64,000 nucleotides of DNA from an uncultured bacterium (GTDB lineage: Bacteria > Patescibacteriota > Minisyncoccia > Phycocordibacterales > PALSA-1337). Both the position numbers and the translations under genes were made by a program. The notes under the pieces were generated by a model that worked only from the letters and a program-made list of their open reading frames with translations, was not told the DNA's origin and searched no databases. The stretch spans positions 305,117-369,116 of the forward strand of contig CAIMDG010000002.1 of assembly GCA_903839725.1 (NCBI GenBank), in the 5' to 3' direction. Shown here piece by piece: positions 4,815-54,350 of the stretch; the stretch's first letter is position 1, and every line of letters begins with the position of its first letter.

Positions 4815-4931
4815 ATATCGATTTGTTGGTCAGTTTGCAAGCTCGAGGAACAATCCTCGGGCTTTTATATTTATTAAAATCTTGCAAAAGAATGAGGAAA
4901 GCGTATAGTTTTTGAAAAGGAGAACCTTACC

Positions 4932-5252: not shown

Positions 5253-5441
5253 CATCACTTCATTATAGATGATGAATAACTTACGTATCACACACCACCC
5301 TTCAAAAGGTGGTGCTGTTTTTTGAACTGATGATTTAATTATCTGCTGAATTACAACGAAACGAAAAGAAGGTCATATTGTTGAATTACATAATCCTGAT
5401 CTGATCTTTAAATTGTGAAAATTGTTGAGGTGACTTCCTGT

Positions 5442-5458
5442 TTCTAACCTGATATGAT
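5442..5458 (+). promoter_or_regulatory. extended -10 promoter motif (TTCTAACCTGATATGAT); start codon 7 nt downstream, leaderless-type
   Basis: One of five or six copies of the ATTCtaAcCTGATATAcT motif. ATG of the SDR gene is at 5465. Confidence 0.5.
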
Positions 5459-5464
5459 TTTTAT

Positions 5465-6190: not shown

Positions 6191-6306
6191 TCTTAGTAAA
6201 AGGTGCATAAAGGATAAGGTGAAGCATATGTTTGACATAATATACATATTATGATACGGTTTTTTATAGCAAACTATTAACAACAAAATAATATCCGCTC
6301 TGAAGA

Positions 6307-7131
6307 GTGGATTTAGAAGGGAATCAAGTGAAGAAACAGAAGAAAAAACATGCTCATCCTTTACGGACAGCTCTCATTATGGTGGTTATGGTTATCGGAA
6401 CAGTTTTATGGTTCAAATCGTCAAAAAATCCCGACATTATCGAACACTCCCATCAGGAACTCGAGGCGAGATATGATTATATTTTGCATCATGTTGTTCA
6501 GACAAATGTGCACCCATTGCTTAGGGCAGTGCATTTTAGTATCGGGAAGAACTTTGCGGCTTGTGGCACGATGATTTTGAAAAAAGATGGCACAGAGGCA
6601 TATATCGTTACAGCCAATCATTTGTTCTCGGAAACTCAACCTGGCTCCGATTATTATGATTACCATGTGCTGGGCACGAATGGTTTTACAACCAATGGTC
6701 ATATTTCTCGAGTCGTCCTTGATAGTTTTCGGAGTTCATCGTCAGTTGAAAGTATTCAGGATATTGCCACCTGTTACCCCGGTGAGGCGAATCTCATATC
6801 ACGCACCTCCAAGGTTATTGTTTCCGCCGAAAACCCTACTGGTCACACATTCACTGTAAATAAAACTCCTCCGTTTGAGGTAATTTCACTTACAACAGGG
6901 GAGCATCTTCAGATCGTTGGCGAGATTGTTAACACTGAGGGTAACGTCTTCTTTGCCATGTTGTATGAAAGTGTGAACGGCGAAAGTGGTAGTGGATTCT
7001 GGGATGGGGGTAATAGACTCCTTATTCTTTCAGGTAATATCACGATAAGCCCACAGACTCGGCGTGAACTTGGTATTCCTGACAAGTTTACATATATAAC
7101 AACGTGCAGCGCCGTCTCGATTCAATTTTGA
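6307..7131 (+). CDS. membrane-anchored divergent trypsin-like serine protease (putative)
   Basis: N-terminal TM helix. TANH (His), DIATC and GESGSGFW (Ser, cf. GDSGGP) in the order expected for the S1 fold. Weak. Confidence 0.35.
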   Translation: MDLEGNQVKKQKKKHAHPLRTALIMVVMVIGTVLWFKSSKNPDIIEHSHQELEARYDYILHHVVQTNVHPLLRAVHFSIGKNFAACGTMILKKDGTEAYIVTANHLFSETQPGSDYYDYHVLGTNGFTTNGHISRVVLDSFRSSSSVESIQDIATCYPGEANLISRTSKVIVSAENPTGHTFTVNKTPPFEVISLTTGEHLQIVGEIVNTEGNVFFAMLYESVNGESGSGFWDGGNRLLILSGNITISPQTRRELGIPDKFTYITTCSAVSIQF

Positions 7132-7590
7132 GTATCCGTAGTTTAGTCCATAAGCCCGTCGCAACTTGCGACGGGTCTTTATTTTTTAATTAGGTATAAT
7201 ATGAGTATTAATTAATCTCACAATATGGAAAACATAGAGACATCTATAATTGACGGTTCACACGAAGTAGGACGTGGACAAGATACCATTCCGGAATCTC
7301 AGGACTTTGAATACACACGTTCACCGTCGAAGTCTGAACATTTGAGTCCTTGGATTAAACCGATAGTAGCGTGCCTTGGTATTCCTGATGAATTTAGGTA
7401 GTTTCCGGGTGATGAACAGGTTGCCTTCGGTATTGGTGCCAGTAATGGGCGTTTACATGATGTTGATTATTATGGAGACCCTGCGGATCATGAGAAGCAA
7501 AATTTCAAAAATAATGGTCGAGGTTCATATGTTATATCATCAGTTGATGCACTCGATAAGTTTTCAAAAGAATTTAGAGATTGTACTGGG

Positions 7591-8055
7591 TTGGTTGTGG
7601 CTGGTAGACAAAAAAATGGTGAAGATATTTCATTCCTGAGTCACGAGGACCCGGTATTTTTTCTTGAAGATAAGAATAATACAAACTTATTTATACGCGA
7701 CCTCAGAGAGAGACTTATGGAAATAAAAAGAAATTCCACAGCAGGGACAATTGATGCGGTGATTTTTGGAGGTAATTATATTAGAAGCTCTTTCGGAGAT
7801 GAGTATATGAAAAATTACTTATTATCAATCAAATTGTTGTCTGCTGAAATTACCAATGTATTAGGATTTGAACCTGTAGTTATGACAGGCCCCAAATTAA
7901 TTGGTGGAAGGGATAATGTATTTTATGATAATAAAAACAGAAGGCTATATATAGAGAGACCAGAAGTTGGAGATCAATCATCCCAAAGTTATTTTCCAAA
8001 AGACTTAAATAATCAAAAGGATACCTGGAAAAGTGATTTTAGGGATAGATTTTAG
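7591..8055 (+). CDS. hypothetical protein (frame open from 7402; upstream in-frame ORF 7225..7398 separated only by TAG 7399-7401)
   Basis: ORF-track start is TTG at 7591. Frame 1 has no stop between 7402 and 8055. ATG 7225 opens the same frame 58 codons before a single TAG. Confidence 0.4.
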   Translation: MVVAGRQKNGEDISFLSHEDPVFFLEDKNNTNLFIRDLRERLMEIKRNSTAGTIDAVIFGGNYIRSSFGDEYMKNYLLSIKLLSAEITNVLGFEPVVMTGPKLIGGRDNVFYDNKNRRLYIERPEVGDQSSQSYFPKDLNNQKDTWKSDFRDRF

Positions 8056-8083
8056 TACATCACATATATAGTGGGGTACTTCG

Positions 8084-8102
8084 ATTCTCAACCTGATATA
8101 CT
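8084..8102 (+). promoter_or_regulatory. extended -10 promoter motif (ATTCTCAACCTGATATACT), ATG 7 nt downstream
   Basis: Copy of the recurring motif. pip start at 8109. Confidence 0.5.
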
Positions 8103-8108
8103 TCTTGT

Positions 8109-9050
8109 ATGAAAAAAGTTACACATATTAATACATCAGGTTTTCTTCAGGTGGATGGACACAGTATCTACTATGAGGATTGGGGTAATCCACAAGCAAC
8201 TCCTATCTTATTTTTTCATGGCGGTCCTGGTGGTGGTTGTGATGAAAAACAGAAACTTTTGTATGACCCCAAGAAACAACGTGTTATTTTTCATGATCAA
8301 CGTGGTAGCGGTAGAAGTACTCCATTTGCAAGTATTGTGAAAAATACAACTCAAGACTTGATCGCTGATGCAGAGCGCATTCTCGATATATTGGGAATAG
8401 ATACTGTTATGGTGACAGGTGGATCATGGGGATCTGCACTTTCACTTTTTTACGCTATTGCACATCCAGAAAGAGTTACAAAAATCTTGATAGGAGGTGT
8501 ATTCTTGGCACGACAATTTGAAATTGATTTCGTGAATGATGGGAGGTTGCAAGCGTTCTTTCCGGCGGAATGGAAACGATTTGTTTCTCTTGTTCCTGTA
8601 GAGCATCGAAATGGCGGGAATGAGATTATGAAATATTATGCAGACAAAATAGCATCTACTGATACAGTGGAGGCTCAAAAATATGCCGATGAATGGACAC
8701 TCTGGGAGATGACTCTGTGTTCAATCAACTATGATCCAAAAAAATTGGAAGAGGGTATCATGGGTGACAAGAATAATATTGCGATTGCTGTCATTGAGAC
8801 ACATTATTTCTTGAACAAATGTTTTGTTCCTGAAAATTATATTATCGATAACATTCACAAGATCAAACATATACCATGCATGATAGTTCAGGGTCGTTTC
8901 GATATGTGTACGCCACCTATTTCATCGTATGACCTTGCACAGGCATATGGTGGCAGATTGACCCTACGATGGGCCAATGGGGGACATATGACGACAGATG
9001 CGGATCTTGGGGCTCGTTTGGATACGGCGATCAAGGAGTTTCTAGTGTAA
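8109..9050 (+). CDS. pip: proline iminopeptidase (S33 alpha/beta hydrolase)
   Basis: FFHGGPGGG near the N-terminus and GGSWGSALSLFYA nucleophile elbow. 313 aa. Confidence 0.8.
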   Translation: MKKVTHINTSGFLQVDGHSIYYEDWGNPQATPILFFHGGPGGGCDEKQKLLYDPKKQRVIFHDQRGSGRSTPFASIVKNTTQDLIADAERILDILGIDTVMVTGGSWGSALSLFYAIAHPERVTKILIGGVFLARQFEIDFVNDGRLQAFFPAEWKRFVSLVPVEHRNGGNEIMKYYADKIASTDTVEAQKYADEWTLWEMTLCSINYDPKKLEEGIMGDKNNIAIAVIETHYFLNKCFVPENYIIDNIHKIKHIPCMIVQGRFDMCTPPISSYDLAQAYGGRLTLRWANGGHMTTDADLGARLDTAIKEFLV

Positions 9051-9184
9051 TGAATACCTGTAGTATACTTATCTATATGACAAGCTTAGAAGTATACCTT
9101 GTTGAAGCAGGTGCAAGACCTACTTCAATGGACGGGGGGGGTATTATAAAGTGAGACCTAGATTCTAATAGCGTAATTATTGAT

Positions 9185-9490
9185 ATGGAAAAAATACCGG
9201 AAAATAACTTCTTCGATTCAAGTACAAGAGAATTTCTCAAAAAGTATGGTCTACAAAAGATTCAGTATAGTTTTTTTGATAAGTTTAGATTTATCATTAC
9301 TGCTGGACTTGGTCTTATATCAGCTCTTGCGTGGGATGAAACACTCAGGGCAATTTTCAATGACTGGTTTCCTGAGATGAGTCATGGATTGAGTAGCCTA
9401 TTGTATGCGACGAGCTTAACAATTCTCGCAACTATCGTTGGTCTGGTGCTTGGTCTTATTTCCAAGAAATCAAAAAATAAGAAAGACTAG
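9185..9490 (+). CDS. small membrane protein (hypothetical)
   Basis: 101 aa with two TM helices. A G8 tract lies 45-50 nt upstream (9134-9141). Confidence 0.45.
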   Translation: MEKIPENNFFDSSTREFLKKYGLQKIQYSFFDKFRFIITAGLGLISALAWDETLRAIFNDWFPEMSHGLSSLLYATSLTILATIVGLVLGLISKKSKNKKD

Positions 9491-10470
9491 AAGTGGTCTC
9501 GTGCACGTACACCACTTTTTTCCATTATTTCAGTCACATCAGCACTCTCTGCTTTATTGAATTGATTGGTGAGCTTCTTTTCTCGGATTGAATGAGCGTC
9601 AAATTCAAGAGTTCCAGGGGTATCATAGAATGTATCCCATTCACGTGAAAAACTTGTACCATGAGTGACGGCATTCAACGCCGCTTCTCCGATATTGGCG
9701 ATAGCTGTTGTATATGAAGCAAGAGGGGATTGTTTGAATTGTTCAGCGTGACTAGCTTCGGCAAGAAATTGACTGTACATCCTCAAACCCAAATCTTCAG
9801 GTGCAAGGTAAATAGTATTATTGACACTATTGTAGTGTTCACGATGTTTCTCTTTGCTGAGCGTTAGTAGTAGTGAATCCTCAGGTTTTTGCCATCGTAT
9901 ATAGGGACTACCACATGCCTTTTCTGTTTTCCAGAGTTCTTCATGGATATGCTTCATAAATATTGGATTTTCAATTACCCAATTTTTGACGTAATTGTAT
10001 TTGTGTCGTAACTGGGAATCTTTTGGAAGTGTGGAAATATAATATTCTATTTGTTTCGTATCCCATTGATTGATTCCTTGCGGCGATGTTATTTTCTTTT
10101 TTTCACACCATTCTGTGATGATATATCGAGCAATATACGCCTTTTCACTTTCAGTAAAAGACTCTTTGCCTGAAAGGGTATTTAAAATATGTTCCGTCTC
10201 TTTGTCGTTGTGACTCCACTTAGAATCTTCTTCAGTTTTGGAAGTTTTATCACGGAATTCATACGCATGATGCATCGCACATGCGGCAATTGTTGCGGCC
10301 ACAGCAATCTGGAGAGATTTGAATAGTTTTTTCCAGGTGGCTGGAGTAACTTCTTTTTCCTGTGTTTGTGGAGTTATATCTAGATTGATAGCCGATTCGA
10401 AATTGGCTACAGTACGTCGTTCCACTGATTGCGGTGTTTCAGGAATTGCTTCGAATGATGATTTTTCCAT
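9487..10470 (-). CDS. single-pass membrane protein, candidate anti-sigma factor by position
   Basis: About 50-aa cytoplasmic N-terminus, TM helix LQIAVAATIAACAM, about 250-aa extracytoplasmic part. Last gene of the sigma-factor operon. Confidence 0.3.
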   Translation of the reverse strand: MEKSSFEAIPETPQSVERRTVANFESAINLDITPQTQEKEVTPATWKKLFKSLQIAVAATIAACAMHHAYEFRDKTSKTEEDSKWSHNDKETEHILNTLSGKESFTESEKAYIARYIITEWCEKKKITSPQGINQWDTKQIEYYISTLPKDSQLRHKYNYVKNWVIENPIFMKHIHEELWKTEKACGSPYIRWQKPEDSLLLTLSKEKHREHYNSVNNTIYLAPEDLGLRMYSQFLAEASHAEQFKQSPLASYTTAIANIGEAALNAVTHGTSFSREWDTFYDTPGTLEFDAHSIREKKLTNQFNKAESADVTEIMEKSGVRARDHF

Positions 10471-10502
10471 ACAAGCAATTATAGCAATATTGTGTGGTTT
10501 TG

Positions 10503-10640
10503 TTAGCTTCGAATCAATCGTACGAGTATCATAATTACTGCAATAACAATAAGGATATGAATAAACCCACCAATAGTGTATGACGTTACGATACCGAGTA
10601 ACCAGAGAACTATAAGTATGATTGCGATTGTTGTTAACAT
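10503..10640 (-). CDS. 45-aa membrane protein (lmo0937-like small protein family)
   Basis: MLTTIAIILIVLWLLGIVTSYTIGGFIHILIVIAVIMILVRLIRS. Below the ORF-track size cut-off. Sits between sigma and anti-sigma-like genes. Confidence 0.45.
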   Translation of the reverse strand: MLTTIAIILIVLWLLGIVTSYTIGGFIHILIVIAVIMILVRLIRS

Positions 10641-10663
10641 ATATGTGTATTAGTTTTTAATAA

Positions 10664-11242
10664 TTATGCAAGACGATACAATAGTTTGAGCTTTTCGAGA
10701 CCTCTGTGCACCTGCACAGCCATCGTATTTTTTGTTTGTCCGGTAATGAGGGACATTTCTCGTAGAGTGAGATCTTGAACATATCTCATCTTCATGACTT
10801 TTCGATATACTTCAGGAAGTTTTTGAATTAAAAGGATTGCAACTTTTCCATCAAGAGTATTGAATAACCTTTCTGAATCATCAACACTTGGCTCAAACCC
10901 ACTTTCGAGAAGGGTATCAAGTGATGTCATTTTATTCTTTCTTTTACGGTATTCATCTATGATGAGGTGATTGAGGAATGCCTTCATGGTATTTATTTTT
11001 CCACCTTTAACTAAATACACCCATGTCTTTATGAAAGTCTCTTGCACCATATCTTCGCCGAGCATATGGTCATCTAACTTAAAGAAGGCATGCGCATTGA
11101 GGCCTTTTTCGTAGTCGTGGTGTGCCACGGTTAGTATTGCTTGTCTTTCAGTTTTTAATTGGAGAGTGCTCATATATGTCACACACCTGCAGTGTTCGAC
11201 AATCTGAGTAGGTTGGTAGCAGGTGACACTATATATGTTCAA
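10664..11242 (-). CDS. ECF-type sigma-70 family RNA polymerase sigma factor (probable start at Met 11173)
   Basis: Region-2-like ETFIKTWVYL and region-4 HTH MRYVQDLTLREMSLITGQTKNTMAVQVHRGLEKLK. Confidence 0.7.
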   Translation of the reverse strand: MNIYSVTCYQPTQIVEHCRCVTYMSTLQLKTERQAILTVAHHDYEKGLNAHAFFKLDDHMLGEDMVQETFIKTWVYLVKGGKINTMKAFLNHLIIDEYRKRKNKMTSLDTLLESGFEPSVDDSERLFNTLDGKVAILLIQKLPEVYRKVMKMRYVQDLTLREMSLITGQTKNTMAVQVHRGLEKLKLLYRLA

Positions 11243-11434
11243 GATGTAGACGGATCATCTACTACTTTTGTTGTGCGTCATATACAAACATACGGCCAAC
11301 TAGACGTTGCTCCTGAAATTTTTTATTCAAGTGATGGTAAAGCTCACCTCAATCTCATAACATGCGGTGGTCTGTGGAATAAAGTTACCAAAAGATATCC
11401 AGATAGGATTGTGGTATTCACGGATAAGATATAA
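11159..11434 (+). pseudogene. sortase-like C-terminal fragment
   Basis: VAGDTIYV...TFVV...LNLITCGG...KRYPDRIVVF matches the sortase beta6-beta8 catalytic Cys (TLxTC) and Arg region. The N-terminal half with TM anchor is missing. The 5' end overlaps the sigma gene on the other strand. Confidence 0.4.
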
Positions 11435-12212: not shown

Positions 12213-12838
12213 GTTCTCAGTAAGGAGTATAGTTTCAATCCACTTATACAAATCAGTTGTATTACTATGTTTACGAGTATGAGACTTAGTGCAATAAGTC
12301 CAAGTTGTATCAATATGGGTGATTGTATGAAAAATGCGAGAATCACAATGATCCATACATTCTTGATATCCTGTATGGAGGGACCAATCATTGCTCCAAT
12401 GTTGAGGAATAGTATAACTACGACCCACATCTGCCATTCCCATGGTTTCATTTGAGTAAGAAGATCGAGTGGTCCTATGTATAAGTCACTCCATTGTCCA
12501 GTAAGTGTTGCTATTGAGAAGTGATCAGCGAGAAGAACGTGGTTAATAATATACAAAAAACAGAGTCCGCCAAAAATTGGCGCTGACGATATGAGGAAAT
12601 TTCCTATAAGGGGAAGCTTTGATTTACTGTGTAATACGTGAGGTTGTGAGGAAAATACACTGAATTCCTGTATGCGTGCTCCAGTGAGAATGCAGAGAAT
12701 AGCATGAGAACATTCGTGGACAAAAGCCCCGATGTAATACATGAAGTGAGTAAACTTATAATTCAAGTAACGCCAATTCAGCCAGTTACTTATATAACCA
12801 AAACTGACAACAAGGATGATGATCAGGCCAAAACTCAT
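12209..12838 (-). CDS. polytopic membrane protein with HExxH motif (putative intramembrane zinc metalloprotease)
   Basis: FVHECSHAILC inside a TM segment. 6-7 TM helices. Confidence 0.4.
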   Translation of the reverse strand: MSFGLIIILVVSFGYISNWLNWRYLNYKFTHFMYYIGAFVHECSHAILCILTGARIQEFSVFSSQPHVLHSKSKLPLIGNFLISSAPIFGGLCFLYIINHVLLADHFSIATLTGQWSDLYIGPLDLLTQMKPWEWQMWVVVILFLNIGAMIGPSIQDIKNVWIIVILAFFIQSPILIQLGLIALSLILVNIVIQLICISGLKLYSLLRT

Positions 12839-13710: not shown

Positions 13711-14334
13711 ATGATCTCTATAAATACCCCCAATAATCTCGGAGTGAAGGTGTATCACTTCTTTCTATATCGTAGTATGTTGCCAGCACTTGTTTGTTTA
13801 TTTGCTGCTGGAGTACTTGCGGTTATGGGAAAATCCTTAAACAATTTGATTCTCGATATTCTATCTATGTTTGCGCCAGTCAATATACTGTCTCAGCAAC
13901 TCACCACAACTTTTGTTTCTAATAGTTTTTTTGCATTGATTGCTATAGCCATTATTATTGCAATGGTCGCTTTTACTAAGAGTACTTTGCAATACAGAAA
14001 TTTTTCGTTTACGCTCGAGGAATTCAATATCAAGATAAAACGAGGTGTTTTGTCGACCACTGAAATATCTGTACCGTATCGTCAACTTCAAGATGTGGTT
14101 ATTGCTCGAGATATCAACTATAAGATGTTTGGTCTTTCTCGTTTGGTTCTTAACACGTTGAAGGATGATGAGAGTGGTGACCACAAATCAAGCCAGATTG
14201 TTTTGGAACCGATTGACGCTATTCTTGCAGATGAAGCTCGTCAGATTCTTGAAAGTAAGATAGGTGTTCATGTTATTGAACGAACACGTGACATTCCTGT
14301 GCAGGGTAGCGTAAATCCGACACCTCACTTATAA
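13711..14334 (+). CDS. membrane protein with bacterial PH (YdbS/YdbT-like) domain
   Basis: Two TM helices then FTLEEFNIKIKRGVLSTTEISVPYRQLQDVVIARDINYKMFGLSRLVLNT. Confidence 0.5.
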   Translation: MISINTPNNLGVKVYHFFLYRSMLPALVCLFAAGVLAVMGKSLNNLILDILSMFAPVNILSQQLTTTFVSNSFFALIAIAIIIAMVAFTKSTLQYRNFSFTLEEFNIKIKRGVLSTTEISVPYRQLQDVVIARDINYKMFGLSRLVLNTLKDDESGDHKSSQIVLEPIDAILADEARQILESKIGVHVIERTRDIPVQGSVNPTPHL

Positions 14335-15440: not shown

Positions 15441-16335
15441 TATTCAGATTACACAATCAAGTGAAGGCTATGAACTCATCGACTCTGGTGATGGTGAAAA
15501 ACTCGAGCGTTTTGGTGCAGTTGTACTTTCTCGACCAGATCCTCAGGCTTTATGGAAAAAAATGTTGCCTGAGAGTGAATGGAAAAAAGCACATGGTCAT
15601 TTTGGGAGAAGTGGTACACCTCTTCCAGGGAATGAAGAGCGGGGGAGTTGGACACTGAAGACCGATGTTCCAGCAAAATGGGAGATACCTTTTGGTGGGT
15701 TGAAACTATGGATCAAACCAACTGCATTCAAGCATACGGGTCTTTTTCCTGAGCAATCCAAGAATTGGGAGTGGATGGAGGGTAAAATTAAATCTCAAAA
15801 ATTACATCTTAAAAATGATGACATCGAAGTCCTCAACCTTTTTGGCTATACCGGTGGAGCATCACTCGCATGTGCGCAAGCTGGTGCGAAGGTTGTTCAT
15901 ATAGACAGTTCGAAAGCTGCCGTAAATTGGGCACGTGAAAATGCCGAGGCTTCAGGACTCAAGGATTTACCAATTCGTTGGATTATAGAAGATGCACGAT
16001 TGTTTGTTGAACGTGAAATAAAGCGAGGAAGGAAATATGATGCCATTCTCATGGATCCCCCAGCATTTGGTCATGGTCCAACTGCAGAATTGTGGAAAAT
16101 TGAAAATAACTTTTTGGAACTTATTGAAAATTGTATGAAATTGCTCAAAGATGCACCAGTATTCTTTTTGATCAATGGATATTCTGCCGGATATTCAGCA
16201 ATTGCGTATGAAAATAATTTACTTGAATTGAAAGAGAAGTATGGAGGTAGTATTGAAATAGGGGAGTTGGCTATCGAAGAAACCAAGAATAAGCGTTTGT
16301 TACCATCTGGTATTTTTGCAAGGTGGTCAGCTTAA
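15406..16335 (+). CDS. class I SAM-dependent (rRNA) methyltransferase, RlmI/RlmK-like
   Basis: LNLFGYTGGASLACAQAGAKVVHIDSS (motif I) and ILMDPPAFG (motif IV). Confidence 0.6.
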   Translation: MIVQHHSMKTSNIQITQSSEGYELIDSGDGEKLERFGAVVLSRPDPQALWKKMLPESEWKKAHGHFGRSGTPLPGNEERGSWTLKTDVPAKWEIPFGGLKLWIKPTAFKHTGLFPEQSKNWEWMEGKIKSQKLHLKNDDIEVLNLFGYTGGASLACAQAGAKVVHIDSSKAAVNWARENAEASGLKDLPIRWIIEDARLFVEREIKRGRKYDAILMDPPAFGHGPTAELWKIENNFLELIENCMKLLKDAPVFFLINGYSAGYSAIAYENNLLELKEKYGGSIEIGELAIEETKNKRLLPSGIFARWSA

Positions 16336-16351
16336 ATGCTATGCTCATCGT

Positions 16352-17188
16352 ATGTCAGCTACCCTTATAGACGGCCGAATTGTACGAGATATACGGATTG
16401 CAAACCTGAAAGAGCGTTTGGCGACATTGTCGTATATACCTACACTTGCGATTATTCAAGTTGGAGATAGGCCTGACTCAACAGCTTTTATTCGTGCCAA
16501 AAAGGCATTTGCGCTCAAGATTGGTTTCAAGGAAAATCACATTAAGGTTGATGAGGGTATTTCAGAGAAAGAGCTTATTGATATTGTGAAGAGTTGTAAT
16601 ATTGACCCTGCTATCCACGGCATCATTGTGCAACTACCATTACCATTGCACATAGAACGAGATGCAATCATTGACGCCATCGATCCGCGCAAAGATGCTG
16701 ATGGACTTACTGCTATCAATACCAAGCGTTGGCTTGAAGGTAGGGAAGATGCTGTTATGCCTGCAACAGCTCGAGGTATTAGAGAATTATTTCGCTATTA
16801 CAATATCGATTTGTTCGGTAAGCCGGTAACGGTCGTTGGTAGATCGATGCTCGTAGGTAAACCTATTGCTGCAATGTGCTTGAATGAGAATGCGACCGTA
16901 ACTGTCTGTCACAGTAAAACTCCACATTTGGTAGAAGAAACAACAAAAGCTGATATTTTGATTGTTGCTACAGGTAGGCCCGGACTCATTCAGGCCAAAC
17001 ACGTAAAGAGAGGTGCAGTTGTTATAGACGTAGGTATTACTCGTACAGCTGAGAATATATTGACAGGGGATGTTGATTTTGATTCTGTAAAAGATGTTGC
17101 TGGTGCGATATCTCCAGTACCTGGAGGTGTTGGACCGATGACTGTGTGTGCATTGTTTGAGAATCTTATTGATTTGTGTAAGCAATAA
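16352..17188 (+). CDS. folD: bifunctional methylenetetrahydrofolate dehydrogenase/cyclohydrolase
   Basis: ATLIDGR...VQLPLP...DGL...VVGRSMLVGKP...PGGVGPMTV. ORF-track frame 16316 trimmed to ATG 16352. Confidence 0.85.
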   Translation: MSATLIDGRIVRDIRIANLKERLATLSYIPTLAIIQVGDRPDSTAFIRAKKAFALKIGFKENHIKVDEGISEKELIDIVKSCNIDPAIHGIIVQLPLPLHIERDAIIDAIDPRKDADGLTAINTKRWLEGREDAVMPATARGIRELFRYYNIDLFGKPVTVVGRSMLVGKPIAAMCLNENATVTVCHSKTPHLVEETTKADILIVATGRPGLIQAKHVKRGAVVIDVGITRTAENILTGDVDFDSVKDVAGAISPVPGGVGPMTVCALFENLIDLCKQ

Positions 17189-17196
17189 TTTATTGT

Positions 17197-17499
17197 ATGA
17201 AGAATATAGAACAACAGCCATTTGATCCTATTGCACATGACAATGAGGTTCGTGCACAATTTGAGGAATACAACAAAAAAGAGCAGGAAAAATTAGCAAA
17301 GATTCAACGCATGTTTGCACTTGCAAGAGATGTCGGTTCGGACATGGCGGTAGTCGAGCAATTAAGAGAAATGCGATTTGAAACATGGCAAGATGCTCTT
17401 GATTTCAAGGCATTCTGTGAAGAGAATGATCTTCCTGTGAAACTTGTTGAACCACCTACGTGGGATAAGGATCAAATATACAGAGTATTTCCTGTATAA
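17197..17499 (+). CDS. hypothetical protein
   Basis: 100-aa acidic ORF with no motif. Confidence 0.4.
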   Translation: MKNIEQQPFDPIAHDNEVRAQFEEYNKKEQEKLAKIQRMFALARDVGSDMAVVEQLREMRFETWQDALDFKAFCEENDLPVKLVEPPTWDKDQIYRVFPV

Positions 17500-17555
17500 G
17501 TGTAATGTTTATCTGGTATACTTGAAGTGTTACTAATTAGTAATCTATTTTTATT

Positions 17556-18344
17556 ATGAATCAAAAAATTTGGAACATAGGTGCAGGAGTGGGAATACTC
17601 ATCATTGTGTTCCTTGCAATTATCTCTATCAAGGAAATAAAATCTATCGCATATGTTGGAAAGAGTGAACAAATCATAAACACTATTACTGTTTCAGGTA
17701 AGGCTGAGACAACCAAGAAGCCCAATATTGCAACATTCTCTTTCACGGTTACTGAAAATGCAAAAACAGTCACTGAGGCTCAAAGTAGTTCTGCAAAGAA
17801 AGTTGATGCTGCATTAAAAATGCTAAGTACATCAGGTATTGCCCAGAAAGATATAAAGACACTCTCATACAACATAAGTCCACATTATGAGTATCAGGCA
17901 GGTCTATGTTCAGGTCGCCCAAGTGTTTGTCGTCCAGGAAAGTCTGTATTGACTGGATATGATGTCAGTCAGTCAGTTCAGGTCAAGGTTCGTGATTTGA
18001 CCAAAGCAGGTACAATCTTTGGTTCTATTGGTGCACTTGGTATTCAGGACGTGAATAATCTCAGTTTCTCAATCGACAATATTGATGGAATTAAGGATCA
18101 GATTCGTGCGCAGGCCATCGTTGATGCCAAGGGCAATGCTGAGGTTCTCGCAAAACAACTCGGAGTCACTTTGGTACGTGTGAATAGTTTTTATGATTCG
18201 AGCGATCAGGGAAGCCCTATCGCATATGGTATGGGTGGTGGAGATATGATGAGTACAAAAGTTGCGTCTGTTGTGGCCCCATCTATTCCAGCAGGGGAGA
18301 ATAAGATAGTAAGTACGGTGAATATCACATACGAGATCAAGTAA
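17556..18344 (+). CDS. SIMPL (DUF541) domain protein
   Basis: N-terminal TM/signal, then the SIMPL pattern TVSGKAE...TFSFTV... Terminator 18365-18390. Confidence 0.55.
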   Translation: MNQKIWNIGAGVGILIIVFLAIISIKEIKSIAYVGKSEQIINTITVSGKAETTKKPNIATFSFTVTENAKTVTEAQSSSAKKVDAALKMLSTSGIAQKDIKTLSYNISPHYEYQAGLCSGRPSVCRPGKSVLTGYDVSQSVQVKVRDLTKAGTIFGSIGALGIQDVNNLSFSIDNIDGIKDQIRAQAIVDAKGNAEVLAKQLGVTLVRVNSFYDSSDQGSPIAYGMGGGDMMSTKVASVVAPSIPAGENKIVSTVNITYEIK

Positions 18345-18500
18345 ATATATAGAAAGAGAAACAAAAAACCGCTGTATGCGGTTTTTTGTTATTGAGCTAA
18401 CGTATAACTTACGTAAGTTGGAACATGATATTGCAATGTTACGAGCAACATAAAAACCCGATCTCATACGAGAGTCGGGCTGTCCGCAGGGTAGTGCAGG

Positions 18501-19079
18501 CTAACGAGTTGCTGGACGCAAGAAAAATCTTTCGATTTCAAGATCAGCTTTGACGTTCGCTCGATAATTTTCCATCGTAGTGGCTCGAGAACCTGCTGAT
18601 TTCGAAAGAAAAGCATTACGGGAATCGTGGTAGGCCTTCAAGAATGCCTCATCTGAAAACCACGGGTAATACTTTGTCAAAACCTGAGCAGCATTGTAGC
18701 CACGTCGGGTTAGAAAGATTCGTGCATTCATGAGGATTTGTTTCCGCAAAAACTGGCCGGTTTGGTCATTGGGCACTTTAACAATAAGCTTGTGGTCAGT
18801 TTCCTCCTCCGCCACCTCATAGTTGACCTTACCGTATACCATTTTTGAGTGCCGAACAAAGATGGCTTGTAGTCTTTTGTCGTCTGAAAAAATTTTACGT
18901 TGTTTCTTCGTGAGGATGCCGACGAGAAAAAATATACGCGCAACACAGTCAACAGTTGTCCATGTGCCAAAATCAATTTCCTCTACTTGTTCATCCGTGA
19001 CCTTTGACCGAAAAAATATGCTCAGAATAAAAAGGTCAAAAAACACATCTGGTGTAATTGCCATTCCTTTGGGTAACAT
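18501..19079 (-). CDS. hypothetical protein
   Basis: 192 aa with no secure motif. Apparently co-oriented with the NDT-like gene upstream. Confidence 0.4.
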   Translation of the reverse strand: MLPKGMAITPDVFFDLFILSIFFRSKVTDEQVEEIDFGTWTTVDCVARIFFLVGILTKKQRKIFSDDKRLQAIFVRHSKMVYGKVNYEVAEEETDHKLIVKVPNDQTGQFLRKQILMNARIFLTRRGYNAAQVLTKYYPWFSDEAFLKAYHDSRNAFLSKSAGSRATTMENYRANVKADLEIERFFLRPATR

Positions 19080-20488: not shown

Positions 20489-20584
20489 CGATGCAAATAC
20501 GCAAATGTATGCGAATGACACGAATACATCGCACAGCTTCTTGGATTTATTCGCGTCATTCGTGTTCATTCGTAATTTGCATCG
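20489..20584. repeat. iteron-built palindromic element, copy A (between nusG and rplK)
   Basis: Arms GATGCAAATACGCAAATGTATGCGAATGACaCGAATA / TATTCGCGTCATTCGtgtTCATTcGtAATTTGCATCG around a variable centre. Each arm is made of tandem NNGCRAAT octamers. Copies also at 54351-54457 and 61309-61415. Confidence 0.7.
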
Positions 20585-20626
20585 GCACCTTGTATAAACC
20601 ATTAAGTTAGTATAATATCCATTATC

Positions 20627-21049: not shown

Positions 21050-21082
21050 TCTTAAATTTCAAATTTTAAATCTCAAAAATAA
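21050..21082 (+). repeat. A-rich AAATyTCAAA repeat, intergenic copy
   Basis: TCTTAAATTTCAAATTTTAAATCTCAAAAAT directly after the rplK stop. Same family as the four in-frame copies in ileS. Confidence 0.55.
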
Positions 21083-21362: not shown

Positions 21363-21380
21363 GTTTTATATTGTAACAGA

Positions 21381-21497
21381 GTAAGCACATACTACACAGA
21401 CTTTTAGGGACGCGGATATTTTTTTGCTGAAAAATTCCTAGTGCTCGCCTCAGTCAGGCTCGCAGTGTCCCTAAAAGTCTGTGTAGTATGTGCTTAC
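21381..21497. repeat. perfect 31-bp inverted repeat with 55-nt spacer
   Basis: GTAAGCACATACTACACAGACTTTTAGGGAC at 21381-21411 and its exact reverse complement at 21467-21497. Sits at the 3' end of the DHFR-like gene. Confidence 0.8.
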
Positions 21498-22006
21498 TTA
21501 ATAACCTTATATTCAACAAGCAATGTTCCACTCTCTGTTTTTTCTAGATTCACGAGTTCTAACTTATAGTCCAAAGTCTCTTTGAATAATCGGATACCAT
21601 TACCGAAGAGGGTAGGTTCGATAGTGAGGTACAAACTATCTACGAGTCCTGATTTCATGAACATAGTATAGATCTGAGAACCACCACAAATGGCTACTTC
21701 TTTAAAACCGCGAGTTTCTAATTCCTGGATAAGTTCAGTAGGTTCCTTGGTTGTCGTCTCAACACTTTCTGGCATATCTGGGAGTCTTTCAGGGGAGTAT
21801 ATGATATTGAGTCGATCCTTGAGTGCTCTACCACCGAATGTTTTCCACGTATTCTGGCCAGTAACTATAACTCCTGCACGTTTGGTCAGTTCCACGAAGC
21901 GCTTCTTGTCTTCTTTGCTCGTCCAGACCGTCGAAGGTGCCGAAGAATCTCTGGCGATGAAGCCGTCTACTGATAATGCTGCGATAATGAAGATTTTTAT
22001 ATTCAT
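21494..22006 (-). CDS. dihydrofolate reductase-family protein (RibD C-terminal domain type)
   Basis: MNIKIFIIAALSVDGFIA...GVIVTGQNTW...YLTIEP. ORF-track frame extends to 22081. Likely start is Met at 22006. Confidence 0.6.
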   Translation of the reverse strand: MNIKIFIIAALSVDGFIARDSSAPSTVWTSKEDKKRFVELTKRAGVIVTGQNTWKTFGGRALKDRLNIIYSPERLPDMPESVETTTKEPTELIQELETRGFKEVAICGGSQIYTMFMKSGLVDSLYLTIEPTLFGNGIRLFKETLDYKLELVNLEKTESGTLLVEYKVIK

Positions 22007-26208: not shown

Positions 26209-26730
26209 TTGATAGCAGGCCGACCTCCTCGGCGCATAACTTACCGTAGTGCGCCGAGGATGGGTAGGGCAGTCCAGGCCGTGCTCGCCCTCCAGCGATC
26301 AGCGCCCGCAGGCGACGGAGGTAAGTTATGCGCGCGAGGAGGTCTTGAGTATGTTGACAGAATAAATTCAAAGGAGTACATTATGGCCTGCGGGATAAAT
26401 CGACAAAGAAATTACTATCATTGTCGGAAACACATAGTTGCGAGCACACTACGAGCATTCACATGCTGCGTGGTATCAGGGCAGGAAATGCCCTCGGTTA
26501 CTGAGGTGTCCATGTGTGTCCAGTCATTACTGGTTCGCAAATTGGGCATTCGAAGTTTCCTATCACTGACCAGACGTCACTTAACGTTCTTGCTTCGGAG
26601 GTTTACCTCCAACACCGTTATTCGCTGACAGGTCAGTGCTAATTTTCTCCGTGAAAGCGGGGATTGCTAAGGAAACCATAGGAAAGGGGCGTCGCACATG
26701 GCTGTGCGACGCCCTGATTTTTTTATGTTG
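26209..26730 (+). ncRNA. GC-rich ORF-free island: 24-bp-stem GC-rich hairpin (26222-26344) plus promoter-to-terminator unit (26354-26726), candidate structured RNA, identity unassigned
   Basis: Sharp GC rise in an AT-rich genome. All three + frames open, no minus-strand ORFs. TTGACA-17-TACATT at 26354-26382. Terminator GGGCGTCGCACAtggcTGTGCGACGCCC plus T7 at 26687-26726. Confidence 0.3.
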
Positions 26731-31031: not shown

Positions 31032-34000
31032 ATGTCAGTAGAAATTCCAGACAAAAAACCAAAATCACCTAATGCGGAGCGTGAAGAACGTATTCTTTTG
31101 AGTTGGAAAGAAAAAGATATTTTCAATAAAACTCTAACTAAACCTGCACCCAAAGGGGAATTCGTTTTTTTTGAAGGTCCTCCAACTGCCAATGGTCGCC
31201 CCGGAATCCATCACCTCGAAGCGCGTGCATTCAAGGATGCAATACCTCGTTACAAAACGATGCAAGGTTTTTATGTGCGTCGCAAAGGAGGTTGGGATAC
31301 TCACGGTTTGCCCGTTGAACTCCAAGTAGAAAAAGAGCTTGGTCTCAAATCAAAAAAGGAAATCGAGAATTACGGTATCGCCGCATTCAATGATAAGTGT
31401 AAAGAAAGTGTTTGGAAATATGTCCATGAATGGGAAGACTTCACCAATCGCATGGGATACTGGGTTGATCTCAAGAATCCATACATCACCTATAAGTCTC
31501 AATATATTGAAGCAGTATGGAATGTCATCAAGACTGCAGATGATAAGAAGTTACTCTATAAAGACTACAAAGTAGTACCATGGTGTCCGCGTTGTGGAAC
31601 AGGATTATCTTCACATGAATTGGCACAAGGGTATGAAGAAGTAAAGGATTTGACGTTGTACGTTAAATTCAAAATTAAATCTCAAATTTCAAATCTCAAA
31701 AATGAAGCACAGGGAGATACATATTTTTTGGCATGGACAACAACACCGTGGACGCTTCCGGGAAATGTGGCATTGGCAGTAGGGAAGGATATTGAATATG
31801 TGAAGGTTAAAACAGGTGAATTACTTTCACCAGAAGCTTCTTCACCTAAAGGTGGTAAAGGTGTCGATATGGAAGCGGCATTTATTCGCGGTAATAATAA
31901 GGATGATATTTATTTAATTCTTGCAAAAGAGCGTTTGAGTGTACTCAAAGATGTTCAGCATGAAATTGTTGAAACAATAAAGGGCTCTGACCTTGTCGGA
32001 CTTTCCTATGAGCCACTATTCTCATTCTTGAAAGACAGCGTGACAGGGGAGCAGAAAGATAAACTTTCACATGCATTCAAAGTATATGCGGGTGATTTCG
32101 TCACCACAACCGACGGTACAGGTATTGTGCACATCGCCCCAATGTATGGACAAGACGATTTTGAGCTCGGTACAAAAAATAATTTGCCAAAATATCATCT
32201 CGTAAATGATGACGGCACGTTCAAAAAAGAATGTGGCTTTTTGGCTGGTAGATTCGTCAAAGAGAAAGATGCTAATGGTAAACCAACCTTGGATGTTGAT
32301 GTGGTTAATTATCTCAAAGAAAAAGGATTATTCTTTGCTCAAGAAAATTATAAGCATACATATCCTCATTGCTGGCGCTGTCATACACCACTTATCTATT
32401 TTGCACGTGATTCATGGTATATCCGCATGTCATCACTTCGAGATGAGCTCGTTAAACAAAATGAAGGTATTCATTGGGAACCTGAACATATCAAAGAAGG
32501 ACGTTTCGGTGAATGGCTCCGCGAAATCAAGGATTGGGCAATTTCACGTGAGCGTTATTGGGGAACACCATTGCCAATCTGGTCATGTGAAAAATGTCAT
32601 GCACGAAAAGTTGTTGGTTCAGTCGATGATCTCAAACGTCCTGCAAAGAATACGTATTATGTGATGAGACATGGTGAGTCGACAGGTAATATTGAAAGGG
32701 TTTTGAATAGTAGTATAACCGCGCAAGTTTCTCTTACTGATACTGGTAAAGAGCAAGTAAAAAAGTCCGCGCAAGCTTTGAGAAAGATATCATTTGACTA
32801 CATAATCGCTTCTCCTCTTGTGCGCACCCAAGAAACAGCACATATTGTAAAAAATGAACTCGGTCTTACTGATAGTCAGATGATTACGGATGAACGTCTA
32901 GTCGAACTCGGTCTTGGTCCATGGAATGGAAAACCTGTAGATGATTTTCTTGATGCGTATCCAGTCGCTAGTCGCTTTGAGAAGACTATTGAAGGTGTAG
33001 AATCGTATGTTGATCTCAAAAAACGCGTTGGCGGTTTTCTCTATGAGTGTGAGAAAAAATATGAGGGCAAAACTATTCTTATCGTTACTCATGGTTCTCC
33101 TGCTACATTACTTGTGGCTGTGACACAGGGAATGAATCATGAACAAACTATTTCCTACGAAGAAGAACATTTCCTCGGTAATGCTGAAGTTCGTCCTCTT
33201 CAATATACCGTTTTTCCACATAATACTGAGTATGAACTCGATCTCCACCGACCATTCATCGATGAGGTAACCTTTGCATGTTCGTGTGGAGGAGTAATGA
33301 AGCGTGCAAAAGAAGTTATGGACGTCTGGTTTGATTCTGGAGCTATGCCATTTGCGCAAGATCACGAGATGAAATCTCAAATCTCAAAAATCAAATCTCA
33401 AAACTTCTTTTCAAAATTATTCGGTAAGGAATCAAAGATGTTATATCCTGCCGATTTTATTTCAGAGGCAATTGACCAGACTCGTGGATGGTTCTATACA
33501 CTTCATGCTATTGGTGCAATCATGGGGAAGGGTAAGGCGTACAGGAATGTTATTTGTCTCGGACATATTCTCGATGCTGAGGGTAAGAAGATGTCCAAGT
33601 CTGTAGGTAATGTGGTGAATCCATGGGACATGATGGATCTTTACGGTGCTGATGCATTACGTTTTTGGATGTATTCGGTCAATCAGCCAGGTGACTCAAA
33701 GAATTTTGATCAAAAAACAGTTGATGAGGTGGTGAAGAAAGTATTTAACTTGGCTTCAAATGTTCTTTCGTTCTATAAGATGTACGAAGATACATCTCAA
33801 AAATCAAATCTCAAAAATCAAATCAAATCGCAAAACGTACTGGATCAATGGATCATCACACGATTGGATGAAGTTATTGAGACGGTCACAAAAGGACTTG
33901 ATGGGTATGTATTCTTGGAACCTACACGTACTATCCGTGATTTTATCGCTGATCTATCACAATGGTATCTTCGCCGTTCACGCGATAGATTCAAGGGTGA

Positions 34001-34619
34001 TGATGAAGCTGATAAACAAGCAGCACTAGAAACAACAAAGTATGTATTGATAACTTTGGCAAAAGTTATGGCACCATTCACACCGTTCTTTGCTGAATTT
34101 ATGTATACAGAAACTGGTGGTGAAAAGGAAAGTGTTCACCTCGAGGAGTGGCCAGAAGCAGGGAAGGTTGATGCGAAACTTATTGCCGACATGAATATTG
34201 TTCGAAGTCTTTCTTCGAAGGGTCTTGAGGCAAGAATGAAGGCAAAAATAAATGTGAGACAGCCACTCGCAAATCTTAAATCTCAAATTTCAAATCTCAA
34301 AGATTTAGCACCGGAACTTATTGATCTCATAAAGGATGAAGTAAATGTAAAAAATATCGTATTTGAAGGAGCACTTACAACTGAAGTCGAGTTGGATACA
34401 ACTATCACTCCAGAGCTCAAAGAAGAAGGTGATGTTCGTGAACTCATCCGTTCTATTCAAGATTTGAGAAAAGAAAAAGGTCTGTCTGTAGGAGATAAAG
34501 TATCTATTACTGTCCCAGAATCAAATCGTGCCTTGGTTGAAAAATATGGCCATGAAATCAAGAAGACAACAGGTCTCATCGATATCAAGGTCGGTGATAG
34601 CTTGAGTATCATCGCGTAA
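31032..34619 (+). CDS. ileS: isoleucine--tRNA ligase carrying an inserted histidine-phosphatase domain and four short in-frame repeat insertions
   Basis: Canonical IleRS blocks: PPTANGRPGIHH (HIGH), AWTTTPWTLPGN, WGTPLPIWSCEKCH, DLHRPFIDEV..CSCGG, DVWFDSG, QTRGWFYTL, KMSKSVGN. 1195 aa is about 150-250 aa longer than typical. Confidence 0.92.
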   Translation: MSVEIPDKKPKSPNAEREERILLSWKEKDIFNKTLTKPAPKGEFVFFEGPPTANGRPGIHHLEARAFKDAIPRYKTMQGFYVRRKGGWDTHGLPVELQVEKELGLKSKKEIENYGIAAFNDKCKESVWKYVHEWEDFTNRMGYWVDLKNPYITYKSQYIEAVWNVIKTADDKKLLYKDYKVVPWCPRCGTGLSSHELAQGYEEVKDLTLYVKFKIKSQISNLKNEAQGDTYFLAWTTTPWTLPGNVALAVGKDIEYVKVKTGELLSPEASSPKGGKGVDMEAAFIRGNNKDDIYLILAKERLSVLKDVQHEIVETIKGSDLVGLSYEPLFSFLKDSVTGEQKDKLSHAFKVYAGDFVTTTDGTGIVHIAPMYGQDDFELGTKNNLPKYHLVNDDGTFKKECGFLAGRFVKEKDANGKPTLDVDVVNYLKEKGLFFAQENYKHTYPHCWRCHTPLIYFARDSWYIRMSSLRDELVKQNEGIHWEPEHIKEGRFGEWLREIKDWAISRERYWGTPLPIWSCEKCHARKVVGSVDDLKRPAKNTYYVMRHGESTGNIERVLNSSITAQVSLTDTGKEQVKKSAQALRKISFDYIIASPLVRTQETAHIVKNELGLTDSQMITDERLVELGLGPWNGKPVDDFLDAYPVASRFEKTIEGVESYVDLKKRVGGFLYECEKKYEGKTILIVTHGSPATLLVAVTQGMNHEQTISYEEEHFLGNAEVRPLQYTVFPHNTEYELDLHRPFIDEVTFACSCGGVMKRAKEVMDVWFDSGAMPFAQDHEMKSQISKIKSQNFFSKLFGKESKMLYPADFISEAIDQTRGWFYTLHAIGAIMGKGKAYRNVICLGHILDAEGKKMSKSVGNVVNPWDMMDLYGADALRFWMYSVNQPGDSKNFDQKTVDEVVKKVFNLASNVLSFYKMYEDTSQKSNLKNQIKSQNVLDQWIITRLDEVIETVTKGLDGYVFLEPTRTIRDFIADLSQWYLRRSRDRFKGDDEADKQAALETTKYVLITLAKVMAPFTPFFAEFMYTETGGEKESVHLEEWPEAGKVDAKLIADMNIVRSLSSKGLEARMKAKINVRQPLANLKSQISNLKDLAPELIDLIKDEVNVKNIVFEGALTTEVELDTTITPELKEEGDVRELIRSIQDLRKEKGLSVGDKVSITVPESNRALVEKYGHEIKKTTGLIDIKVGDSLSIIA
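31677..31703 (+). repeat. in-frame A-rich repeat copy 1 in ileS (encodes KSQISNLKN)
   Basis: AAATCTCAAATTTCAAATCTCAAAAAT. Confidence 0.6.
32655..33239 (+). other. histidine phosphatase (phosphoglycerate-mutase superfamily, branch 1) domain embedded in IleRS
   Basis: YYVMRHGESTGN (RHG catalytic His), SPLVRTQETA, DERLVELGLGPWNG, ILIVTHGSP (second His). Flanked by IleRS residues ...DDLKRPAKNT and EYELDLHRPF... Confidence 0.75.
33372..33404 (+). repeat. in-frame A-rich repeat copy 2 in ileS (KSQISKIKSQN)
   Basis: AAATCTCAAATCTCAAAAATCAAATCTCAAAAC. Confidence 0.6.
33793..33836 (+). repeat. in-frame A-rich repeat copy 3 in ileS (SQKSNLKNQIKSQN)
   Basis: CATCTCAAAAATCAAATCTCAAAAATCAAATCAAATCGCAAAAC. 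Confidence 0.6.
34271..34302 (+). repeat. in-frame A-rich repeat copy 4 in ileS (NLKSQISNLKD)
   Basis: AAATCTTAAATCTCAAATTTCAAATCTCAAAG. Confidence 0.6.
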
Positions 34620-35243: not shown

Positions 35244-35255
35244 TTCTTGAAGCGA

Positions 35256-35369
35256 CTCATACACCCTGTGGTGCAAGAGACTCCGTGACGAGCAAATATA
35301 AGTGCCTGAAGAATTATATAATGAAACGATATCCCGCTGGGAAGTCTCTTGCACCACAGGGTGTATGAG
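35256..35369. repeat. perfect 27-bp inverted repeat with 60-nt spacer carrying a conserved 43-nt core
   Basis: CTCATACACCCTGTGGTGCAAGAGACT (35256-35282) and its exact reverse complement (35343-35369). Spacer core GTGCCTGAAGAATTATATAATGAAACGATATCCCGCTGGGAAG recurs at 53330-53371 with about 90% identity. Confidence 0.75.
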
Positions 35370-35409
35370 CCGCTTTCAAGGTTGACTGTTTCGTAGTAAA
35401 ATATAAGGG

Positions 35410-46960: not shown

Positions 46961-47045
46961 TAAATTACAAATTAAAAATAACAAATCCAAAAATCAAGCA
47001 TCATAATATCAAAGATATGCAATTGTTTATTTTTGAGATTTGATA
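46961..47045. repeat. A-rich repeat family, forward copy then reverse-complement copy (rpsF-ssb intergenic)
   Basis: TAAATTACAAATTAAAAATAACAAATCCAAAAATCAAGC ... TTTTTGAGATTTGATATTTGAGTTTTGAATTTT. Confidence 0.45.
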
Positions 47046-47070
47046 TTTGAGTTTTGAATTTTATTACACT

Positions 47071-54331: not shown

Positions 54332-54350
54332 GATTCGAGATATAAAGAAT

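Follow-up and report, generated by a model that had tools for sequence, protein, structure and literature searches.

Four long inverted repeats (IR1 to IR4) lie at gene ends in a 64-kb stretch of contig CAIMDG010000002.1 from an uncultured bacterium; this whole stretch is called the window here. IR1 overlaps the TAA stop of a DHFR/RibD_C gene on the minus strand, and the next minus-strand gene starts 17 nt away. IR2 begins 12 nt past the recO stop and sits between recO and a DUF11 gene. The end of IR3 lies 27 nt after the stop of ftsK (minus strand), between ftsK and a small gene preceding recA. IR4 begins 74 nt past the stop of an MscS-like gene, beyond a canonical terminator (62930-62967), and on its downstream side lies the promoter-like site (63167-63194) of an unlinked 23S ribosomal RNA (rRNA) gene starting at 63576. 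Our findings indicate that IR1 to IR4 probably represent several families of repeat elements in Paceibacteria (Parcubacteria, candidate phyla radiation (CPR)) that are small (~100-160 nt), lack autonomy, and form hairpins.

The nearest genomes were metagenome-assembled genomes of Paceibacteria/Parcubacteria (Candidatus Taylorbacteria, Paceibacterota), with an FtsK identity of at most 73%. Scans of the JGI metagenomes and GTDB found no relative closer than ~68-73% protein identity. Close relatives were obtained solely via exact-protein look-ups, and the relatives used for comparison were reached via RecA, RecO and MscS homologues. Retrieved comparison loci are labeled with L-numbers (L002, L306 and so on), of which L166 and L174 belong to the window genome beyond the window. 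In total, ~88 kb of the window genome was readable, Pfam annotations included. The window strain was independently assembled from many samples in at least three projects, and these assemblies are more than 99.96% identical.

Four perfect inverted repeats downstream of stop codons

An initial annotation of this DNA listed four inverted repeats with exact reverse-complement, mutually unrelated arms at stop codons, and this description was confirmed. All four are present with exact arms of 32, 27, 30, and 34 bp and spacers of 55-72 nt, and each lies 0-75 nt past a stop codon, IR1 overlapping it (coordinates in Table 1). Their 123 stem base pairs contain zero mismatches and zero G-U pairs, and between repeats the arms are dissimilar in sequence. 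Pairing of IR2 reaches 35250-35375 if one mismatch is allowed. Imperfect pairing also continues inward, giving 42-nt arms with 39 matches in IR3 and arms of ~65 nt in IR4, where the arms are built from A/C-rich units with a period of seven bases (AAATnnC). Chance, already considered very unlikely in the initial annotation, does not come near to explaining these arms: the longest exact inverted repeat in the shuffled window was 15 bp (20 shuffles), compared to the 27-34 bp observed. Fold-energy z-scores of the four repeats ranged from -10 to -14, with predicted fold stabilities of -65 to -77 kcal/mol. The list of four was real but incomplete, as at least six further long hairpins are present within the window.

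Inverted repeats around a short segment are what inverton finders seek, and fold-back palindromes do occur in these assemblies. Two such palindromes were found at L302:2692-2868 (a contig end) and L308:4516-4712 (beside an N gap; also delimited as 4516-4726), with 85- and 95-nt arms and 7-nt loops. Both are most likely assembly fold-back artefacts and provide a useful negative control. The 95-nt inverted duplication at L308:4516-4712 was also considered as live template switching and rejected, as it abuts Ns and is most likely an artefact. Unlike these, IR1 to IR4 are internal and have loops of 55-72 nt, and the repeats that are covered are 100% identical in independently assembled contigs from several samples and projects. 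Because the same sequences recur in independent assemblies, the repeats are not artefacts. Phase-variable inversion fares no better. Site-specific inversion requires more than the 55-72 bp of these spacers, one orientation was found in all independent assemblies, and the core of the IR1 family (R1, described below) always keeps the same orientation relative to its asymmetric outer motifs. Invertons or fold-back artefacts were therefore given a near-negligible probability.

The initial annotation also raised selection for very long intrinsic terminators or insulators at gene ends. The location of all four repeats just downstream of a stop codon and their extreme stability agree with this reading, and a stable hairpin at such a position is the likeness to an intrinsic terminator. 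An intrinsic terminator has a GC-rich stem of ~5-15 bp and a 3-8-nt loop, is followed at once by a U-tract, and keeps a fixed orientation to the upstream gene. In contrast, the stems here are 27-34 bp long and enclose structured loops of 55-72 nt, no stem is followed by a U-tract, and a terminator scan was empty at all four. The annotation's remark that the stems are far longer than those of standard terminators is thus correct, and they are not ordinary terminators. The genome has ordinary A-/T-tract terminators, including the one directly upstream of IR4, and IR1, IR2, and IR3 sit between co-directional genes 130-190 nt apart. Moreover, members of the families described below occur in both orientations and inside rRNA and coding sequences, and relatives manage without IR2 and IR4. 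With these observations, the terminator or insulator reading became very improbable.

Conserved cores and variable stems

The core of IR1 (21412-21466, ~55-57 nt) is a double hairpin composed of hairpin A (GGAUAUUUUUUUGCUGAAAAAUUCC) and a GC-rich hairpin B. This spacer is 89-95% identical to sequences of distant Paceibacteria, and IR1-like cores with unrelated stems were found in L016, L037, L058, L043, L010, L075, L070, L082, L121, and other loci. When 12 copies (R1) were aligned, a three-way junction emerged, in which a long closing stem surrounds hairpin A (GGAUAUUUUUCUGCUGAAAAAUUCC) and the GC-rich hairpin B. IR1 scored 89.8 bits (E 1e-22) against the R1 covariance model, which found ~25 copies across at least 16 distant Paceibacteria loci. 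Genomes ranged from no copy at all to three per ~20 kb, and L043 holds as many as three within 16 kb. The closing stems are unrelated between genomes yet paired. Relative to co-directional flanking genes, eight R1 copies are sense and seven antisense. The window genome carries an extra R1 copy in its own 23S rRNA, just outside the window, where it forms an insertion of ~155 nt at the helix 25 tip. This copy is antisense to the rRNA, has arms that differ from those of IR1, and is decayed.

The initial annotation took the unrelated arms as evidence against copying of one mobile element. This objection fails because the spacers and inner stems, not the arms, carry the homology, as seen for IR1, IR2, and IR3. 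The IR2 core has an 84%-identical paralog 18 kb off with a different stem (Table 1). The inner ~75 nt of IR3 are homologous to a 119-nt hairpin at another locus (L306/L307/L308:9073-9191; nhmmer E 5e-8), whose outer arms differ from those of IR3 by changes that are mirrored and compensating on both sides. A further core, core-3, is ~95% identical with unrelated arms at window 26222-26343, L174:240-347, L105:1794-1852, and L306:1088-1185. The L174 copy belongs to the same genome, lies 8 kb left of the window, and has perfect 29-bp arms. IR2, IR3, and IR4 were also considered as divergent R1 members. This was ruled out, as a filter-free search with the R1 model scored them only as generic hairpins.

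Within one genome, copies that are perfect (IR1 to IR4 and L174:240) coexist with others that have decayed, namely, 53275, the 20490/54344/61309 family, and the copy in the 23S gene. The simplest reading would be that the four perfect repeats are the youngest copies and that older ones have decayed in the same genome.

Table 1. Hairpin elements and related repeats of the window (positions in nt; a dot marks features given no strand)
Feature	Position	Strand	Structure	Context or remark
IR1	21380-21498	+	perfect 32-bp arms 21380-21411 / 21467-21498, loop 55	R1-family hairpin element
IR2	35250-35375	.	perfect 27-bp arms 35256-35282 / 35343-35369, 60-nt core 35283-35342	
IR3	50806-50927	.	perfect 30-bp outer arms 50806-50835 / 50898-50927, loop 62	inner stem imperfect
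IR4	62983-63122	.	perfect 34-bp outer arms 62983-63016 / 63089-63122, loop 72	
Second IR2-type core copy	~53275-53405	.	core 53310-53370, different degenerate stem	upstream of ftsK
Core-3 element	26222-26343	+	core CCGTAGTGCGCCGAGGATGGGTAG...CCAGCGATCAGCGCCCGCAGGCGACGG, extra 24-nt apical hairpin, ~23-bp stem	
Three-copy family, copy 1	20490-20586	.	related arms (GATGCAAATACGCGAATG...)	between nusG and rplK
Three-copy family, copy 2	54344-54464	.	arms show decay only, zero compensating changes	
Three-copy family, copy 3	61309-61414	.		upstream of rplJ
Inverted pair of small GTCATTCCCGCGCAGGCGGGAATCC hairpins	47754-47903	.		brackets EF-P terminator 47807-47851
Seven-base tandem units	21054-21077, 31677-31700, 33372-33388, 34271-34301, 46962-46978, 47032-47048, 61081-61097, 63015-63031			

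The stems retain complementarity while their sequences change. In the R1 closing stem, 12 of 13 pairs were changed on both sides, and across the R1 structure this was the case for 21 of 28 pairs. None of 500 shuffles reached the observed covariation values, which also exceeded all slid controls. G-U accounted for 2 of 156 closing-stem cells, versus 19 other mismatches, whereas hairpin A kept a G-U at one position in 7 of 12 copies. Among the three paralogs of L043, 14 pair differences were compensated and six were one-sided, with none passing via G-U. Because G-U pairs are nearly absent, changes are compensated, and orientation is random, these comparisons point to complementarity being set at the DNA level rather than by RNA-level selection on one strand. 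The suggestion in the initial annotation that perfect arms are maintained gains from this result, as stems that stay complementary through two-sided changes fit a DNA-level constraint or correction. Covariation is a property shared with structured non-coding RNA families; a match to a curated family and a consistent strand or context, also expected of such a family, were not found. This type of covariation need not act on RNA, as G-U is nearly absent from the aligned stems.

Several other candidates were evaluated. A hammerhead ribozyme in the IR2 core (CUGANGA...GAAA by eye) was rejected because A replaces the essential G5 in the paralog. When the window or the IR2 region was searched against Rfam, no family was matched, whether at the gathering threshold or at E<=10, except for spurious microRNA-like hairpins. 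Arms derived from phages as guide- or spacer-like sequences were also rejected, as exact 21-22-mers of the IR1, IR2, and IR3 arms had no match in IMG/VR. An 18-nt exact match to IR3 in L027 lies outside any hairpin there and is probably due to chance. The AT-rich hairpin A motif matches at least 120 viral contigs, but the R1 covariance model detected no true R1 element in the 80 viral contigs that were fetched.

Other repeats were observed alongside these families. L038 contains four ~95% identical hairpin copies with conserved TGAATTACGAAAC termini (8081-8205, 9296-9401, 13759-13862, and 16590-16693), and in the unrelated L121 an R1-type element (18608-18762) is bordered by this motif as well. 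Some element families may share terminal repeats. The small GTCATTCCCGCGCAGGCGGGAATCC hairpin of the window (47754-47790 and 47868-47903) recurs in distant Paceibacteria at L098:257-437, L043:15184-15255, L030:12206-12328, and L305:15103-15149; it may resemble the Neisseria dRS3 repeat ATTCCC-N8-GGGAAT. Tandem seven-base units, (AAATYWC)n, are strongly over-represented in the window, with 12 matches versus 0.09 expected, 11 of the 12 being on the + strand. Several are in frame within an unusually long (1195 aa) IleRS gene, and others directly follow stop codons. In the distant L145, a 31-nt unit with 93% identity to the IR4 arm occurs twice, as direct copies, in the IleRS gene.

Gain, loss, and replacement at permissive sites

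Comparison with relatives provided sites lacking these hairpins. In L302 (RecO 89% identical, 83-nt spacer) and L305 (41-nt spacer), the recO 3' spacer lacks the IR2 hairpin entirely. In both, the promoter region downstream of the IR2 site still aligns and neither arm is present, and the IR2 arms had no significant similarity to the empty-site spacers (p 0.46-0.99). IR4 is missing in L306, where the orthologous spacer is 73 nt, compared to 226 nt in the window, and again neither arm is present. The nusG-rplK spacer is only 17 nt in L002, making the hairpin at 20490 an insertion relative to L002. Judged from these alignments, IR2 and IR4 represent presence/absence differences of whole hairpins and are lineage-specific gains.

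These empty sites also bear on an on-the-spot origin, in which template switching or quasipalindrome extension copies local sequence without any mobile element. The initial annotation raised such a recurrent mechanism and proposed comparing orthologous spacers for arms copied from the flanks. Perfect arms that are unrelated between loci agree with it, and the absence of G-U fits templated DNA synthesis. In addition, the hairpins at window 47754-47903 and L178:12701-12821 bracket an existing terminator, as if grown outward. However, the spacers are homologous between loci and genomes and hence are not local sequence. Neither arm is present at the empty sites of IR2 (L302, L305) or IR4 (L306), and therefore the arms were not copied from the local flank. 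Both results speak against local template switching, which we consider quite improbable.

Positions occupied in the window often carry another hairpin in relatives. The slot 3' of ftsK contains IR3 in the window, no hairpin in L178, and a different hairpin in L180 and L181. In the slot 5' of ftsK, the window has the IR2-type core and L306 has core-3 (1088-1185), and L178 and L309 carry hairpins of a third kind. In L178, the slot 3' of EF-P is taken by a different inverted repeat with perfect 30-bp arms (12701-12821), and in L309 the IR4 slot is taken by a different A/C-rich hairpin. Upstream of rplJ, L306 has an IR3-type hairpin, replacing the 61309 element of the window. Turnover is clearest at the tip of helix 25, where the R1 element of the window genome corresponds to an entirely different hairpin in L306, while the rRNA flanks are 100% identical; L309 has an assembly N gap exactly at this site. 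These comparisons showed that hairpins are gained and lost as units at permissive sites, namely, short spacers near stops, the helix 25 tip, and in-frame positions in proteins. They also showed members of different families taking the same slot in related genomes.

Some relatives carry hairpins within coding sequences; these in-frame copies all belong to relatives and none to the window. In-frame hairpins with perfect arms are present in a methyltransferase gene of L002 (25-bp arms), recO of L305 (33-bp arms), and ftsK of L014. The L002 and L305 inserts have a common core, use the same reading frame, and encode SSPAGxAS. The in-frame inserts would fall in surface loops of proteins. At the same codon position of the methyltransferase gene, independent in-frame insertions occurred in two lineages: a 33-nt insert of the seven-base-repeat kind in the window (15788-15826) and a 136-nt hairpin at L002:4711-4846. 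This suggests that the codon position is an insertion hot spot.

The 23S rRNA gene (63576-64000, continuing in L166:3223-6989) is 3767 nt long, compared to a 2925-nt model, corresponding to ~840 nt of insertions. A 5S gene follows it, no 16S gene lies upstream of it within the window, and no transfer RNA gene was found anywhere in the 64-kb window. In L307, a strain of the L306 organism, a diversity-generating retroelement (bAvd, RVT_1) and a resolvase gene lie downstream of the rRNA region (15532-18812); L306 is without them there.

Differences between near-identical strains were also located. Over 6.5 kb (4800-11300), L306 and L308 differ by only five substitutions, and every one falls within the hairpin L306:9073-9191. 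Between L180 and L181, the single difference in 12.9 kb falls in a hairpin arm. One of the few single-nucleotide polymorphisms among assemblies of the window strain, at 60131, lies in the rplL terminator stem (60120-60160). Strain differences concentrated in hairpins could result from hypermutability, gene conversion, or a chimeric metagenome consensus.

Hairpin elements as a candidate source of insertions

The preferred explanation, that IR1 to IR4 are copies of several families of hairpin-forming repeat elements, is one we hold to be probable. Such an element consists of a long closing stem around a ~55-60-nt two-hairpin core or around a continued imperfect stem. Its inner part is conserved within a family, sometimes across very distant genomes, while the closing stem varies between copies and stays Watson-Crick paired. 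Complementarity may be set or restored on DNA by self-templated synthesis, palindrome correction, or selection on the hairpin. Movement would depend on a trans-acting factor that recognizes the conserved core, and any benefit to the host, e.g., stabilization of RNA 3' ends, would be secondary. New perfect arms may come from same-arm source copies elsewhere in the genome or from self-templated synthesis.

Several observations weigh against this explanation. No transposase or nuclease candidate was present among the Pfam annotations of the ~88 kb read, and no source copy with identical arms turned up within that sequence. No target-site duplication or direct repeats were seen flanking IR1 to IR4; L002:4711-4846 is flanked by what may be an AATT duplication, although this tetramer is palindromic in itself. 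A conserved core with variable arms is the reverse of a classical miniature inverted-repeat transposable element (MITE). Relatives were few for some repeats: one each was found for IR2 and IR3, while IR4 has weak relatives only, at L178:12706-12816 and L309:8898-8992, besides the arm's 93% identity with the repeat in the L145 IleRS gene noted above. Compensation occurs in the R1 family (L043), but the three-copy family of the window displays one-sided decay only and the copy at 53275 is strongly degenerate; a universal correction of stems is therefore not demonstrated. At the slot 5' of ftsK, orthology of the outer arms between the window and L306 was suggestive by eye and not significant (p 0.07-0.4); the outer arms of L178 gave a similar impression by eye at this slot. 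Finally, cores reach 90-95% identity between genomes that share just 55-60% in FtsK or IleRS, a conservation stronger than expected for junk that hints at function.

This conservation is also a ground for regarding the hairpins as host-functional structured elements. Their cores would bind a conserved cellular protein, as RNA or as extruded DNA, with the stems merely presenting the core, and roles in RNA processing or stability, as RNase III substrates, in nucleoid organization, or in replication could follow. The R1 core (~90% identical) and core-3 (~95%) exceed the protein identities above, stem covariation surpasses all shuffles and slid controls, hairpin A of R1 keeps its G-U, and the same slots (ftsK 3', EF-P 3', and upstream of rplJ) repeatedly bear hairpins in related genomes. 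On the other hand, copy number changes from none to three per ~20 kb between genomes, orientation to transcription is random, and copies lie within coding sequences and rRNA. IR2 and IR4 are wholly absent from close relatives, unrelated cores fill one slot in different genomes, the stems lack the G-U pairs typical of RNA-level selection, and zero Rfam families matched. Host function of the conserved cores, in any of these roles, is the main rival, a possible but unlikely account.

Known systems offer parallels for hairpin-forming repeat elements. Rickettsia palindromic elements (RPEs) constitute palindromic repeats of 100-150 bp scattered through a reduced genome; they form several families with lineage-specific proliferation and occur between genes as well as in frame inside protein-coding genes (PMC1779305). 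The elements described here are 114-140 nt long and intergenic in the window, with in-frame copies in recO, ftsK, and methyltransferase genes of relatives and one copy in an RNA gene. The likeness to RPEs is one of behavior, not homology, which is not expected across phyla. A difference is that RPE families are recognized over their whole length, whereas in the present elements it is the core that is conserved, with closing stems that are unrelated between copies but perfectly paired. Mitochondrial hairpin elements, among them the double-hairpin elements of fungal mitochondrial DNA and the GC clusters of yeast, are small hairpin or double-hairpin repeats. In compact genomes they invade intergenic regions, variable rRNA regions, and protein genes; they are retained in transcripts and have no known adaptive function (PMC2800124). 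Similarly, the R1 core is a ~57-nt double hairpin found at a length-variable rRNA helix tip. The mitochondrial elements belong to organelle genomes, and homology is not implied. To our knowledge, a perfect 27-34-bp closing stem around the double hairpin is not part of their descriptions.

The elements also resemble MITEs, foldback elements, and repetitive extragenic palindromic (REP) sequences with their bacterial interspersed mosaic elements in being short, non-coding, multi-copy, and palindromic, in their location at gene ends, and in a presence that varies between strains. Many dispersed copies were found, as for MITEs (~25 of R1, two of the IR2 core, and three of the 20490/54344/61309 family). 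The terminal inverted repeats of MITEs are conserved because the transposase recognizes them. Here, the arms are unrelated between IR1 and the 23S copy, between IR2 and 53275, and between L174:240 and 26222, although families of some relatives behave like classical MITEs with conserved arms, e.g., the four L038 copies with TGAATTACGAAAC termini. No parent insertion sequence or REP-associated tyrosine transposase (RAYT)-type gene was seen in the ~88 kb read, and REPs are much shorter (20-40 nt).

A bolder version of the mobile-element explanation would make these hairpins undescribed, Patescibacteria-specific mobile cassettes. Their functional unit would be an ultra-conserved double-hairpin core of ~55-60 nt that a trans enzyme recognizes, and each copy would be born with a new perfect stem through fold-back synthesis or hairpin-directed correction, preferentially settling or replacing others at helix tips and gene-end slots, 23S rRNA helix 25 and surface loops of proteins among them. 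We regard this version as conceivable, though on balance doubtful.

CPR bacteria have tiny compact genomes and odd insertions in their rRNAs and proteins, and we found no specific description of such hairpin or palindromic elements in the literature on this radiation. In annotation pipelines, these elements can be mistaken for terminators, invertons, or small RNAs. They also break assemblies, as at the helix 25 N gap of L309, and seed spurious open reading frame calls. If they are merely selfish repeats, they are a useful and unsurprising addition beside RPEs and mitochondrial hairpin elements. Two mechanistic questions follow from their design: what recognizes the core, and by what means the arms come to be, or stay, complementary. 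Herein, intergenic inverted repeats, an insertion at an rRNA helix tip, and in-frame insertions in proteins are tied to one kind of hairpin element, which suggests a concrete candidate source for part of the insertion oddity of CPR bacteria. Were the mobile cassettes real, they would be a main source of the insertions that characterize the rRNAs and proteins of these organisms.

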